A DNA stretch of 64,000 nt, from NCBI GenBank assembly GCA_902771535.1, contig CACXWU010000003.1, positions 20,813-84,812 on the forward strand. The letters run 5' to 3'. Source of the stretch: an uncultured Pseudomonadota bacterium (GTDB taxonomy: Bacteria > Pseudomonadota > Alphaproteobacteria > UBA3830). Below are positions 4,195 through 8,578 of this stretch, one piece after another. Within the stretch, counting starts at the first letter, position 1. Each line of letters opens with the position of its first letter. The notes under the pieces were generated by a model, which saw only the letters and a list, made by a program, of their open reading frames with translations, was not told where the DNA came from and did not search any database. Position numbers and translations under genes: made by a program.

Positions 4195-4373
4195 GTTGCA
4201 AACGCATCCCTTTTTTGCTAAGTCTAAAATGTTGGATAGAGAGTTTTTATGCTGATCAATCAATATGTTAGCTGTTGGGTTCACTTCATTTTTGACTCTC
4301 GCCCGATTTGTCGCGGTTTCGCCCGGTGCGGAATCGTTTGGTTTTAGTAATTTTGTTAGAAAAGGAGCATATC
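4195..4373 (+). promoter_or_regulatory. Conserved non-coding leader, copy 1 of 3, upstream of LRR paralog 1
   Basis: About 179 nt that aligns almost gaplessly with 5757-5936 and 7092-7270. Shared blocks are agagagtttttatRctgatYaatcaa, tcatttttgactctcgccc, and ttttgtWagaaaaggagYata just before the ATG. Confidence 0.6.
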
Positions 4374-5570
4374 ATGAGAAAATTATTGTTAAGTGCCTGT
4401 CTCGCGGCGGCTTGCTGGATAGGTGACGCGAGGGCGATGCACGGATACCCTAACTCTTATTCGCCCGAAAAGATCAACAGCGTGCACGAAATATATGAGG
4501 GAAAAGAACTGGACATTTCTTCTTGGGGAAATAAAGAGTTGTTGTCGCAATATAAGAAATTTCCTAATGTAGAGGTGCTAACGGCGGATTTGAACGTTTT
4601 TCGGATAACATATTGCAACTCTCTTGGAATACTTTTCTATGGAGAACAATTTAAGCTAGATTTAAATAAATTTCCCAAAATAAAAAAATTAAAACTCAGC
4701 TCTAATAGGAAAGAGTGTTCGCTGGCTCCGAGGCATTCTGTTACGATGGGATACAATATTCAACTAACGGAACTTTCAACGTTAGGAGGAATGGAAAACT
4801 TAGAAGAGTTGGATATGTCAAGGCTTAGTATTGCGAAAATACCAGATTCAATACAAAATTTTAGATGTTTGAAAAAATTATATCTCGGTGATAACTTTCT
4901 GGAAAAGTTGCCACGATCAATCGGAAATTTAACTAACCTGGAGACCTTGATCCTGGGTACAGATGTGGGAGAATGGAGCAATTGTTTAGTAACTTTACCT
5001 AATTCAATAGGGAATCTGGTTAATCTGAAGGTATTAGATCTTTTTGGTTGTAGTCTAAGAGAGCTACCTGCAACCATCGGAAATCTAAGAAATTTGGAAA
5101 GACTTTTTCTTGGTTTTAACAAATTACTGAGGTTGCCTGAATCAATAGGAAATCTAAGAAAATTAGAAATGTTGAGTTTTGGTTGGCCTTCGGGTGTTTC
5201 AATTGATAGTATCCGTTGTTGGGAACGCGAAACAGGTCGTAGTTTTCTGAATGAATATAGAAACCAGAGAAACATAAAAGTGGAGATACCCGAAACCATC
5301 GGAAATTTGGTAAATTTACGAAGTTTGCGTCTTTACAATTGTCTCGCGTTAGAAACACTGCCCGACTCAATCGGAAATTTGGTAAATTTACAAAGTTTGT
5401 ATCTTTCCGATAATCCCGCGTTAAAAACACTGCCCGACTCAATAGGAAATTTGGTAAACCTCGAGTATTTATCTGTAGACGACTGCGTAGCTTTACCTCC
5501 GACCGTGCGAAATCTAAAGAAACTCGGGTCCCACAAATTGGAAAAACTCGAAAAGCAAATCGTTGATTAG
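4374..5570 (+). CDS. Secreted leucine-rich-repeat protein, paralog 1
   Basis: ATG at 4374 lies behind the aaaggag RBS; the track ORF start at 4308 is an upstream extension. The Sec-type signal peptide is MRKLLLSACLAAACWIGDARA. It is followed by about 10 repeats of 23-24 aa with consensus LxxLxLxxNxLxxLPxSIGNLxNL, and a C-terminal cap LPPTVRNLKKL...LEKLEKQIVD. Confidence 0.85.
   Translation: MRKLLLSACLAAACWIGDARAMHGYPNSYSPEKINSVHEIYEGKELDISSWGNKELLSQYKKFPNVEVLTADLNVFRITYCNSLGILFYGEQFKLDLNKFPKIKKLKLSSNRKECSLAPRHSVTMGYNIQLTELSTLGGMENLEELDMSRLSIAKIPDSIQNFRCLKKLYLGDNFLEKLPRSIGNLTNLETLILGTDVGEWSNCLVTLPNSIGNLVNLKVLDLFGCSLRELPATIGNLRNLERLFLGFNKLLRLPESIGNLRKLEMLSFGWPSGVSIDSIRCWERETGRSFLNEYRNQRNIKVEIPETIGNLVNLRSLRLYNCLALETLPDSIGNLVNLQSLYLSDNPALKTLPDSIGNLVNLEYLSVDDCVALPPTVRNLKKLGSHKLEKLEKQIVD
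5298..5513 (+). repeat. Intragenic 72-bp (24-aa) tandem repeat x3 in LRR paralog 1
   Basis: atYggaaatttggtaaa recurs at 5298, 5370 and 5442, an exact 72-bp period. The surrounding sequence is near-identical (ETIGNLVNLRSL / DSIGNLVNLQSL / DSIGNLVNLEYL). Confidence 0.75.
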
Positions 5571-5590
5571 TTCCTTTTGACAATCAGATT

Positions 5591-5617
5591 GCATCCGTCA
5601 GCTCAGCTGGTGGATGC
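5591..5617 (+). terminator. Strong hairpin after LRR paralog 1
   Basis: 12-bp stem gcatccgtcagc / gctggtggatgc with two G-U pairs and a 3-nt loop. No clear U-tract follows. Confidence 0.4.
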
Positions 5618-6932: not shown

Positions 6933-7091
6933 CCTAGCAGTCAATACCAGGCTAAGCTTCCCCATCTTCCGAGTTATTTTCGGTTATTAATGTTGCGACA
7001 TGATTTCACATCGCCGTACACAGGCTCGTGATCGGATTTCTTGAATATTGTTTTATCTTACAACCATACGGTTGTGCTTTACTTATACTGG

Positions 7092-7270
7092 GTTGCAAAC
7101 CTTCCTGTTTTCTGCTAAGTGTAAAACATCGGGTAGAGAGTTTTTATACTGATCAATCAAAATGTTAACTGTTGTATCCATTTCATTTTTGACTCTCGCC
7201 CAATTTGTTGCGGTTTCGCTCGGTGCGAAATCGTGAGGTTTTGGTAGTTTTGTAAGAAAAGGAGTATATC
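7092..7270 (+). promoter_or_regulatory. Conserved non-coding leader, copy 3 of 3
   Basis: Aligns with 4195-4373 and 5757-5936. It is the most diverged copy but keeps the same blocks and the RBS context aaaaggagtatatcATG. Confidence 0.6.
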
Positions 7271-8578
7271 ATGAGAAAATTACTTTTAAGCGCCTGTGTC
7301 GCCGCGGTAGCTTGCTGGATGAATGATGCGAGAGCAATGAAAGGAGGGTATTATGAGTATGAACGCGGGAACTATAAGGGAGAAACAGTCGCCACTGCAG
7401 ATTTTTGGGCATATGGGTATGAAAAAAATAACGTATCGTCGATCTCCAGATGTGAGTCATATGACGGTCAATGGCTAATGACCGACAGGTGGAAATTGGA
7501 GGGTCGTTATCTTCCCTCGAGCCTAAAATATTTATATGTTGATTACACTGGTACAGGAAGAAAGTTTAATAAAGAAGAAAATCCGCCTTCAAAATCTTCA
7601 TTGGAAACGTTGCCGTTAAATTTTGTGGGGATATCGTCGTCCCTAAAAATACTGCATGTACGTAGTTGTTCAGAAGTTGAATCCATATATAATCCCGATA
7701 AGGGGTGTAGGCAACGTTATGAACGTAATAGCCGCAATCATGTGCCAGGAATATTACGTTATGAATCGATCTGTCTGAGATCTATACCTGATACTATCGG
7801 GAATTTGAGCAACTTAAGAGAATTGGATTTATCCGATAATAATCTTGAAACTTTACCGGAATCTATTGGATACTTGAAAAAGTTGGAAGAATTGTATCTT
7901 TCCGGAAATCGTAATTTCAGAAGATTACCGGATTCTATTGGTGATTTAGAAAATCTAGAAACATTGGAACTCGAGGAAACTAATCTTGAATCATTGCCGG
8001 AGTCGATGGGAAAATTAACAAAACTGTCCAGCTTTGTTATTTCTAAATTTACTGAGGGATACGGTCCCCGCGGAAATCCTTACTATAAAACAGAGGGCTA
8101 CTCATCCGATTGGTATTATAGGGTTGTTGAACAATCCATCTCACACTGGTCTCTGCCACCTCTTGATGTAGACAAATCCAGCTTGGATTGGAGCAACAAA
8201 AATTTAACGCAGTTCCCGTGTTGCCCTAGTATATTAGCAGAATTAAAAGAATTAAGAGAATTGGACGTCAGCAGTAATCAGCTCACAGAAATTCCTCGCT
8301 TGCTGGGAAAATTGTGGTTGGAAAAACTGGATATACATAATAACCCTAAGTTAAACCATCTTCCTGATTTTTTGTGGAAAATGTATTATCTGAAAGAACT
8401 AAAAATAGATGGAAAGTTGATAAGAGATCTTCCTAAAAAGGCAAAAGTATCTTTGAAAGATAAAAAGTTGGAAAATCAAGACATAATCGAGCTCCTCTTT
8501 GCAGGTAAAAACAATGTAGAAATGAGTGATGAGGCGTTAGCCAAAAAGACTGTGCCTTACACCGTATACCTGAAGTGA
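7271..8578 (+). CDS. Secreted leucine-rich-repeat protein, paralog 3 (divergent body)
   Basis: 435-aa ORF with signal peptide MRKLLLSACVAAVACWMNDARA. Two LRR blocks (DTIGNLSNLRELDLSDNNLETLPESIGYL... and LRELDVSSNQLTEIPRLLGKL...) are separated by a Tyr/Gly-rich non-LRR insert. The C-terminus is unlike paralogs 1 and 2. Confidence 0.85.
   Translation: MRKLLLSACVAAVACWMNDARAMKGGYYEYERGNYKGETVATADFWAYGYEKNNVSSISRCESYDGQWLMTDRWKLEGRYLPSSLKYLYVDYTGTGRKFNKEENPPSKSSLETLPLNFVGISSSLKILHVRSCSEVESIYNPDKGCRQRYERNSRNHVPGILRYESICLRSIPDTIGNLSNLRELDLSDNNLETLPESIGYLKKLEELYLSGNRNFRRLPDSIGDLENLETLELEETNLESLPESMGKLTKLSSFVISKFTEGYGPRGNPYYKTEGYSSDWYYRVVEQSISHWSLPPLDVDKSSLDWSNKNLTQFPCCPSILAELKELRELDVSSNQLTEIPRLLGKLWLEKLDIHNNPKLNHLPDFLWKMYYLKELKIDGKLIRDLPKKAKVSLKDKKLENQDIIELLFAGKNNVEMSDEALAKKTVPYTVYLK

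Follow-up and report, generated by a model that had tools for sequence, protein, structure and literature searches.

Three tandem genes in a 64-kb stretch of DNA from an uncultured ruminant-gut alphaproteobacterium (contig CACXWU010000003.1, positions 20,813 to 84,812 of the forward strand; hereafter, the window) encode leucine-rich repeat (LRR) proteins, here called LRR1, LRR2, and LRR3, and each gene starts with a closely similar segment of about 250 bp that comprises a leader and the codons of a signal peptide. We interpret the locus as a fast-evolving multigene family that is restricted to one lineage and encodes Sec-exported LRR binders on this common 5′ module, a reading to which we give a probability of roughly 65%. 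Coordinates count from window position 1 unless a contig label is given; L and P labels (e.g., L069, L079, and P0005) denote contigs and proteins compared with the window. The array and its flanks contain the following features:

2272-3996, plus strand: MscS-type mechanosensitive channel gene, 574 aa (list of open reading frames [ORFs]; its identical counterpart in L001 matches Pfam MS_channel_2nd)
4043-4058: terminator-like hairpin 3′ of mscS (terminator scan)
4195-4373, plus strand: leader copy 1 (this and the next two copies from the three-copy alignment, repeat family D2, and the 14-leader alignment)
4374-5570, plus strand: LRR1, 398 aa from ATG, signal peptide 4374-4436 (ARA before Met)
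5648-5711, minus strand: relic of the 3′ end of an outer membrane factor (OMF) gene, 83% identical to 8626-8689 (repeat family D9)
5757-5936, plus strand: leader copy 2
5937-6932, plus strand: LRR2, 331 aa, signal peptide 5937-6002 (AGA before Met)
7092-7270, plus strand: leader copy 3
7271-8578, plus strand: LRR3, 435 aa, signal peptide 7271-7336 (ARA before Met)
8624-10027, minus strand: OMF gene, the right flank of the array (Pfam OEP)
10020-13169, minus strand: RND pump gene (Pfam ACR_tran)
13170-14336, minus strand: membrane fusion protein (MFP) gene (Pfam RND-MFP families)

The three successive same-strand genes are exactly those in the ORF list, as the original prediction, made from the letters of the window, had proposed, and the flanks are as it described them: the array lies between the mechanosensitive channel gene and an RND efflux operon (8624-14336), with which it is convergent. 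Its description of the genes themselves also stood, namely, a noncoding leader of about 180 nt ahead of each gene (83-85% identity between copies), a near-identical Sec-type signal peptide on all three proteins (21-22 residues, ending in AxA-Met), an N-terminal block and an LPPTVRNLKKL...LExLExQI tail shared by LRR1 and LRR2, and a Tyr-rich insert and a different tail in LRR3, to which a different N terminus can be added.

The similarity of the three copies is confined to the 5′ module. Leaders together with the first ~66 coding bases are 83-85% identical, whereas the DNA further upstream and the gene bodies are far less alike or unalignable; conservation among the paralogs starts at GTTG(C/T)AAAC-N-GCTAAGT. 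The window contains three occurrences of a 33-nt leader core, compared with an expectation of 0 from 100 shuffles, and the single match of the core among 185,579 species genomes lies in the metagenome-assembled genome (MAG) Alphaproteobacteria bacterium isolate RGIG9754 Yak_Omasum. The 58 soil, marine, and other loci obtained in a metagenome scan with a 17-nt leader core were discarded, as blastn revealed them to be chance matches of 20-23 nt. The indels that separate the copies and the absence of the ATG from some related leaders show the leader to be noncoding. A leader peptide or upstream ORF (MLAVGFTSFLTLARFVAV..., hydrophobic and ATG-initiated in some leaders) was considered and rejected: the ATG is absent in "first-slot" leaders, i.e., those of the first gene after a sodium:solute symporter (SSF) gene found in other strains, the stops differ, and substitutions are mostly nonsynonymous. 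Within the leaders, the following elements were recognized, the hairpins by terminator scan or by minimum free energy (MFE) folding:

4196-4224, plus strand: promoter-like block of leader 1, TTGCAAA-N14-GCTAAGTC; paralog conservation begins here
5758-5786, plus strand: promoter-like block of leader 2, TTGTAAA-N14-GCTAAATG
7093-7121, plus strand: promoter-like block of leader 3, TTGCAAA-N14-GCTAAGTG
4313-4337, plus strand: hairpin of leader 1, 10 bp, with a U-rich tract to 4347 (terminator scan, MFE folds)
5875-5900, plus strand: hairpin of leader 2 (MFE folds)
7208-7236, plus strand: hairpin of leader 3 (terminator scan, MFE folds)
4362-4367, plus strand: Shine-Dalgarno sequence AAGGAG of leader 1

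Housekeeping promoters of alphaproteobacteria follow the consensus TTGACGS-N10-14-GCTANAWC, and by its likeness to this consensus the TTG...GCTAAGT block is a putative promoter; if it is one, the 5′ untranslated region (UTR) would be about 140 nt long. The hairpins sit 35 to 60 nt ahead of the start codon, each followed by a GGUUUU tract; all copies show them on folding, and two were flagged by the terminator scan. A terminator-like hairpin with a U-tract thus lies between the putative promoter and the start codon, which is the position of an attenuator. All nine base pairs are kept in all 10 leaders compared (100% of cells), five of them varying on one side from G·U to G-C or A-U. The module would accordingly be read as a promoter, a structured UTR with what is probably an attenuator or terminator stem, a Shine-Dalgarno sequence, and a signal peptide; a regulatory role of the stem is plausible.

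The signal peptides of LRR1 (MRKLLLSACLAAACWIGDARA), LRR2 (MRKLLLSACLAAAAFWINDAGA), and LRR3 (MRKLLLSACVAAVACWMNDARA), each followed by Met, consist of a basic n-region (MRK), a 13-residue hydrophobic core with a mean Kyte-Doolittle value of 2.1-2.3, and ARA or AGA, i.e., AxA at positions -3/-1; they were judged by rules applied by hand. The n-, h-, and c-regions and the AxA site are kept in all family members compared, and LRR1 to LRR3 are thus predicted substrates of Sec and signal peptidase I (SPase I). In a diderm, a Sec signal means export to the periplasm only; secretion of the LRR proteins to a host would be a further, hypothetical step. Met follows the AxA site directly in every bacterial family member (4437-4439, 6003-6005, and 7337-7339 in the window), and the same +1 Met is the start codon of the fungal copies described below; it could mark the edge of the module or serve as a second, internal start.

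Downstream of the module, all three proteins exceeded the Pfam cutoffs for LRR_14 (72-122 bits; cutoff, 40), LRR_8 (58-64; cutoff, 27), and LRR_4 (53-68; cutoff, 27), with E values of 1e-14 to 1e-35. The repeat unit comprises 23-24 residues with an LPxSIGxLxNL variable segment, corresponding to a repeat spacing of 69-72 nt in the DNA (repeat family D1), and by this pattern the repeats are assigned to the SHOC2/Leptospira-type class. Of the term "eukaryote-like," under which these repeats had been predicted, the 23-24-residue class stands, whereas the label is a loose one, as Leptospira, other bacteria, and Asgard archaea have many repeats of this kind. LRR1 has irregular N-terminal repeats, then about eight SIGNL-type LRRs, with residues ~263-300 forming an insert, and ends in the LPPTVRNLKKL tail; in LRR2, the N-terminal block known from LRR1 precedes six SIGNL-type LRRs and a C-terminal helix. 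LRR3 combines a distinct N-terminal domain with four LRRs, the Tyr-rich insert, a second LRR block, and the tail ...GKNN.EMSDEALAKKT.PYTVYLK. The insert of LRR1 (GWPSGVSIDSIRCWERETGRSF..., 5160-5290) resembles the Tyr-rich insert of LRR3-type proteins (YS.DWY..VI..SL.HWSCP), and LRR1 may be a chimera of both subfamilies.

AlphaFold2 models of LRR2 (predicted local distance difference test [pLDDT], 78.6; predicted template modeling score [pTM], 0.79) and LRR3 (pLDDT, 75.9; pTM, 0.78) are curved, regular strand-helix solenoids with pLDDT values of >90 across the repeats, and their top PDB matches are all LRR solenoids. The solenoid of LRR2 is continuous from about residue 40, its N-terminal block forming irregular repeats that lengthen it. 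In sequence and fold, the closest solved relatives are the Leptospira proteins LIC11098, LIC10831, LIC12759, and LIC12234, followed by SHOC2, LRRC8, Rsu1, and plant receptor ectodomains. The best solved sequence match of LRR2 is LIC11098 (E = 3.7e-56), with further matches to LSS01692 and SHOC2, and the fold search with LRR3 placed Leptospira LRR proteins (E = 5e-10) and SHOC2 on top and InlA only weakly, at rank 40. Full-length relatives of the LRR1/2 type form five clusters (at 90% identity), all from close rumen alphaproteobacterial MAGs, and the type is thus not a conserved housekeeping gene. The LRR3-type architecture was found in ~25 clusters with variable repeat number, conserved in its N-terminal (…FLMINRWELGN…YLHIDYSGTExKF…) and C-terminal (…HNNPNLNHLPDFLW…KIDGKLIKDLP…GKNNKKMSDEAL.KKTGPYTVYLK) parts.

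How the module and the bodies behave relative to one another was seen by comparison with conspecific contigs, chosen by a PheS identical to that of the window; these strains are near-identical at pheS (synonymous divergence [dS], 0) and mscS (dS, 0.01). The arrays contain two or three LRR genes among conspecific strains, in these arrangements:

Window: mscS-LRR1-LRR2-LRR3-OMF
Conspecific L069: mscS-SSF transporter-LRR2-LRR3′-OMF
Conspecific L079: mscS-SSF-LRR1(422 aa, +1 repeat)-LRR2…
Sister species L066 and L007: mscS-SSF-LRR2(359 aa)-LRR3(444 aa)-OMF

The SSF gene, which other strains and the sister species carry after mscS, has been lost from the window at 3997-4194 by deletions of 1.57 kb and 172 nt relative to L079:7963-9780. 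In a distant relative (L068:286-7670), an LRR3-type and an LRR2-type gene are split by an amine-oxidase-like gene and two ~540-aa genes without assigned function, and of the leader, the LRR2-type gene retains no more than the last ~80 nt. Exactly one 24-residue repeat separates the LRR1 alleles, with 398 aa in the window and 422 aa in P0005 (L079:10001-11269), which looks like gain or loss by slippage or unequal exchange; adjacent 72-nt units in LRR1 of the window (5289-5432) are 83% identical.

The largest change concerns LRR3. Between the window and L069, its product is only 57% identical in amino acid sequence (dS, 1.15), in flanks where pheS shows a dS of 0, mscS of 0.01, and OMF of 0.07 and where LRR2 is 99% identical in amino acids. 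Sliding identity between the two strains follows this course:

Up to ~7230: 98-100%
3′ leader and signal peptide: ~83%
LRR3 body: 30-70%
C-terminal ~90 codons of LRR3: 77-91%
OMF gene: 96-98%

What has been replaced is the LRR3 body that lies between the cassette and the gene's 3′ end, with a break in the 3′ leader/signal-peptide region. The leaders are mosaic as well: that of LRR1 in L079 is a chimera with a 5′ half of the first-slot type and a 3′ half of the type found on LRR1 of the window, and the LRR2 leader of the window is nearer to LRR3 leaders than to the leader of its sister-species ortholog. The 64-nt OMF relic behind LRR1 is also present behind LRR1 in L079 (97% identity) and is absent there in arrays without LRR1; an LRR1-type gene must therefore at one time have stood last in an array and been copied to the front later, the relic being the footprint of the rearrangement that brought LRR1 to its position. 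The repeated 5′ modules thus serve as homology for unequal exchange and gene conversion. Copy-number change, repeat gain or loss, mosaic leaders, and LRR3 replacement are all bounded by the cassette, and the proposal that a constant module for expression and export is combined with a variable one for binding holds.

Gene-wide ratios of nonsynonymous to synonymous divergence (omega) are 0.12-0.30 for the LRR genes and 0.03-0.10 for PheS, MscS, OMF, RND, and MFP. In LRR2, the x positions of the concave face reach 0.3-0.5, compared with 0.03-0.06 at scaffold positions; these are crude Nei-Gojobori estimates from small site classes (30 codons) with dS near saturation. The LRR family evolves fast, and fastest at its ligand-facing positions. 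Positive selection was rejected as a demonstrated cause, as gene-wide and site-class omega values are below 1. The family can therefore be called "diversifying," the word used in the original prediction, with respect to recombination and allele turnover and not with respect to an excess of amino acid changes. The turnover from strain to strain fits frequency-dependent or host/partner-driven selection.

A second hypervariable slot lies between lepA and murJ, ~4-6 kb to the left of window position 1 (L070:15304-17151, L069:15309-17303, L071:10293-11660, and L079:1-731). In conspecific strains, its body is a 615-aa ankyrin protein, a 664-aa coiled-coil protein, or a 455-aa LRR protein. These proteins have a common upstream region and a signal peptide of the form M(R/K)KSLL(V/L)AS…, beyond which they are unalignable, and all three carry basic clusters resembling nuclear localization signals (NLS) just after the signal peptide. 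To judge from these sequences, the arrangement of a constant module on a variable body operates at a second locus of the same genome, too. Elsewhere in the window, a 582-aa ORF without a Pfam match (19175-20923, plus strand) contains the HExxH motif LIHETGHALD and begins with a signal peptide, MKKALIIANILFASATVFG followed by Met, that resembles the signal-peptide family of the second slot; its product may be an exported metalloprotease-like protein.

Two anaerobic rumen fungi, Anaeromyces robustus and Piromyces sp. E2, carry LRR3-type genes as well, as does an AT-rich JGI contig. Anaeromyces robustus has three tandem copies on a 348-kb scaffold (L083:3817-4887, 6123-7106, and 8001-9826). The Piromyces copy (L082:8001-9182) is intronless and adjoins an intron-containing rhomboid gene on an 84.5-kb scaffold; the copy on the JGI contig is at L084:425-1654. 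Fungal and bacterial proteins of this type share 43-55% identity. The GC content of the fungal genes is 27-35%, and that of the measured flanks 10-11% (Anaeromyces and the JGI contig) or 21-25% (Piromyces). The fungal proteins are without a signal peptide; their first residue is the Met found just after AxA in the bacterial proteins. Upstream of one Anaeromyces copy (L083:3736-3750), the codons AAC GCA GGA GCG ATG (N-A-G-A-M) correspond to the last codons of the bacterial signal peptide, and beyond this relic lies poly-A/T fungal intergenic DNA. A neighbor-joining tree of the C-terminal 150 aa interleaves fungal and bacterial members without resolution; because of the signal-peptide relic, however, the sequences point to a move of LRR3-type genes from this bacterial lineage into fungi, with a breakpoint inside the signal peptide. 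A literature search on LRR transfer into Neocallimastigomycota found nothing relevant.

Taken together, each LRR gene would be its own transcription unit on the same ~250-bp 5′ module, composed, in order, of a putative promoter, a ~140-nt 5′ UTR with a hairpin, a Shine-Dalgarno sequence, and a 21- to 22-codon signal peptide ending in AxA-Met. Two roles can be assigned to the module. It would provide all members with the same expression signals and the same Sec/signal peptidase I route, the signals being visible in the DNA and their function predicted from it, and, as the strain comparison shows, it offers homology for the unequal crossing-over and gene conversion that add, delete, move, and replace bodies. 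The hairpin would most likely make expression conditional, via attenuation or control of read-through. The mature proteins, as curved LRR solenoids, would be protein-binding scaffolds, presumably variable binders or adhesins that work in the envelope, at the cell surface, or extracellularly; their ligand may belong to a rumen eukaryote or to other rumen biota.

Several results weigh against parts of this interpretation, and the first group concerns the leader. A scan for E. coli-type sigma-70 promoters gave no match in any of the three leaders, no double compensatory change was seen in the hairpin across 10 leaders, with shuffle controls that were not significant, and the leader comparison yielded no conserved antiterminator. 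A candidate P1 helix (GGGUAGAGAG/CUCUCGCCC) is broken in L066/L007 and L068, likewise without a double compensatory change or significant shuffle controls, and an alternative 6-bp pairing (CGAUUU:GGAAUCG) is not kept by leader 3; covariation thus supports neither an antiterminator nor a P1 helix of the aptamer kind. A stronger constraint on the leader than on other intergenic DNA was not supported either: its Jukes-Cantor distance between species, 0.19-0.27, is no less than that of other intergenic regions (0.05-0.50), and the similarity among the paralogs can be explained by gene conversion alone. The divergence between species, the broken P1 helix, and the absence of double compensatory changes speak for a leader without a special regulatory role, i.e., ordinary promoter/UTR DNA kept alike by recent duplication and gene conversion, in which the hairpin is a terminator, an insulator, or a 5′ stabilizing stem. 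This view is further favored by folding z-scores of only 0.2 to -1.9, by the recombination proven by the mosaic leaders, and by a search of Rfam 15, which gave no match to the leader at the gathering score and, at E values of ≤5, only a spurious mir-29 match inside LRR3. We consider it possible but clearly the lesser chance, since 13 of 14 leaders, L068_a as the most divergent among them, keep the hairpin and GGUUUU, all substitutions leaving the pairing intact, and since the hairpin lies between the sole promoter-like block and the Shine-Dalgarno sequence, the place of an attenuator and not of an end-of-gene terminator. The direct repetition of conserved 5′ ends, a T-tract in the spacer of the putative promoter (T6 in leader 1), and arrangements that differ between strains might also suggest programmed antigenic or phase variation, with one expression site and silent cassettes or with slipped-strand switching in the promoter spacer. 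This is highly improbable: every copy is complete with its own promoter-like block, Shine-Dalgarno sequence, and start codon, the locus has no recombinase, invertase, or inverted repeats, the spacer is a constant 14 nt in all leaders and its T-tract is short, and differences occur only between strains and not within assemblies.

The second group concerns export and target. In the 64-kb window, no secretion machinery beyond Sec was seen, including no genes of type II, III, or IV secretion systems, and omega never exceeds 1 even at concave-surface positions, within the limits of the 30-codon classes and near-saturated dS given above. LRR1 to LRR3 might then be periplasmic envelope proteins of a free-living gut commensal, adaptors or binders for its own envelope or for nutrients without a eukaryotic target, whose variability would reflect relaxed constraint or pressure from phages or predators. 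The normal lipopolysaccharide (LPS), fatty-acid, and efflux genes and the constant adjacency of the array to the RND operon also speak for this. Such a periplasmic or surface role is a serious rival to a reading of the proteins as effectors, yet we hold the periplasmic account to be unlikely, as the family is confined to few close relatives and its copy number and alleles differ even within a species, which is atypical for housekeeping envelope parts; as the array is convergent with the efflux operon and hence not cotranscribed with it; and as exported ankyrin, coiled-coil, or LRR proteins with NLS-like clusters occur at the second slot. Anchoring as lipoproteins, with LSAC at residues 6-9 as the lipobox, is far less probable still and was rejected. 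L-S-A-C fits the pattern [LVI][ASTVI][GAS]C, and Cys9 is common in the family, but SPase II substrates have an invariant lipobox Cys after an h-region of ~7 or more residues, whereas the gap from the n-region to Cys9 is only five residues, and P0003, P0130, and P0132 either lack the Cys or have it in an unfavorable context (LNAC or LGVC); the conserved feature is the AxA-Met site, 12-13 residues after the Cys. For the exported binders that we favor, action as effectors on a eukaryote is possible, and it is favored by the repeat class, the ankyrin and NLS-like second-slot proteins, and the gene flow to fungi. A more far-reaching view, which we rate as a long shot, is that the 5′ modules are general "landing pads" at which recombination would plug unrelated LRR, ankyrin, and coiled-coil bodies into regulated export at two or more slots, with effector swapping near rumen eukaryotes and the leader as a new riboregulator that controls the whole set; intimate contact with such eukaryotes would follow from the acquisition of LRR3-type genes by anaerobic fungi.

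The locus had been put forward as an undescribed system, which overstates the case, because multigene families whose divergent bodies follow a conserved upstream box and leader peptide are a well-known design. By analogy, the protein type matches that of the Leptospira LRR family, and the genetic design matches that of the Borrelia upstream-box/Erp and Listeria internalin clusters. The Leptospira proteins (LIC11098, LIC10831, LIC12759, LIC12234, and LSS01692; PDB entries 4u08, 4u06, 4u09, 4tzh, and 7yjw) have the same 23-residue PxxIGxLxNL repeat class; they come from another phylum and show no homology to the window proteins outside the repeats, and the N-terminal blocks, the LPPTVRNLKKL tail, and the N- and C-terminal domains of the LRR3 type are found in the rumen clade only. 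We know of no report of a shared 5′ leader/signal-peptide cassette for Leptospira. The Leptospira LRR proteins are an exported multigene family for which host binding and an association with virulence have been described (PMC8658460 and PMC11629876).

The "upstream homology box"/Erp (OspE/F-related) and Mlp families of Borrelia burgdorferi have the same design as the window genes, with constant upstream DNA and leader peptide, divergent mature parts, and recombinant variants. Marconi (1996), Akins (1999), and Sung (2000) reportedly described these upstream-box families with their divergent mature parts and recombinational variants. The three papers are in the reference list of PMC10016077. The Borrelia proteins are SPase II lipoproteins encoded on cp32 prophage plasmids and not LRR proteins, whereas the window genes are chromosomal, tandem, and of the SPase I type; the LRR array and the second slot both qualify as 5′-cassette families, by analogy of function only and without sequence homology to Borrelia. 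Listeria internalins form tandem clusters of signal-peptide LRR proteins whose ligands are host proteins and whose genes evolve through recombination among paralogs. The array resembles them in its tandem signal-peptide LRR genes and in recombination, but internalins belong to a monoderm and combine 22-residue repeats and an N-cap with an Ig-like inter-repeat domain and an LPXTG or GW anchor, none of which is present in the window proteins; with units of 23-24 residues and no internalin Pfam domains or motifs, LRR1 to LRR3 are not internalins. Scaffolds of the SHOC2, Rsu1, and LRRC8 type share the repeat class, a similar curvature, and a role in protein-protein interaction, a likeness confined to generic repeats, and are, unlike LRR1 to LRR3, cytosolic or channel-attached eukaryotic proteins without a signal peptide. 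Type III LRR effectors of the YopM/IpaH/SspH class have 20-residue LPX repeats, an NEL ligase domain, and no Sec signal; the window proteins fall outside this class, with another repeat class, a Sec-type signal, and no NEL domain. Sec-delivered effectors of "Candidatus Liberibacter" and phytoplasmas are small exported proteins proposed to act on a eukaryotic host; as in LRR1 to LRR3, their signal is of the Sec type only, without homology between them, and a host association of the present organism would be hypothetical.

As for the organism, the identical locus is found on 107-kb contigs from ruminant gut metagenomes. Further functions encoded in the window are PheS, GlyQS, ClpB, ThyX, FolD, SecB, PolA, HscA/IscS, FabI/FabH/PlsX, LigA, MiaA, DegP, RecA, rubrerythrin, and LPS glycosyltransferases. 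From these ordinary envelope, LPS, and metabolic genes, we conclude that the host of the locus is an anaerobic diderm with a normal envelope. The intracellular lifestyle suggested by the original prediction left no sign in the window, which holds ordinary envelope, LPS, fatty-acid, and repair functions. The named matches of its RecA are all entries called "Alphaproteobacteria bacterium," which narrow neither the placement nor the lifestyle. As context not specific to this organism, undefined Alphaproteobacteria have been reported as enriched in rumen protozoal fractions (PMC6217230). Four other ORFs are without a Pfam match (14452-15330 and 28521-29483 on the plus strand, 43463-44833 and 57493-59340 on the minus strand); N-terminal hydrophobic signal-like segments are present in 28521-29483, 43463-44833, and 57493-59340, which may, on this evidence, encode further lineage-specific exported proteins. 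A lone phage-type large terminase gene (21048-22451, minus strand; Terminase_6N/6C), with a tRNA gene at 23024-23096 (minus strand) and no other phage genes nearby, may be the remnant of a gene-transfer agent or prophage.

The findings leave current concepts unchanged and extend known patterns to a new lineage; the most noteworthy additions are the fungal transfer and the cassette logic at two loci. If the proposed reading is true, the locus would mark rapidly exchanged exported binding proteins in widespread uncultured Alphaproteobacteria of the ruminant gut and would offer handles on what these bacteria attach to or manipulate, be it feed particles, microbes, anaerobic fungi, protozoa, or the host epithelium. 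The leader and signal peptide form a simple search key with which the family can be cataloged in metagenomes, and the copies in Neocallimastigomycota would constitute a clean directional case of gene transfer from a bacterium to fungi in the rumen.

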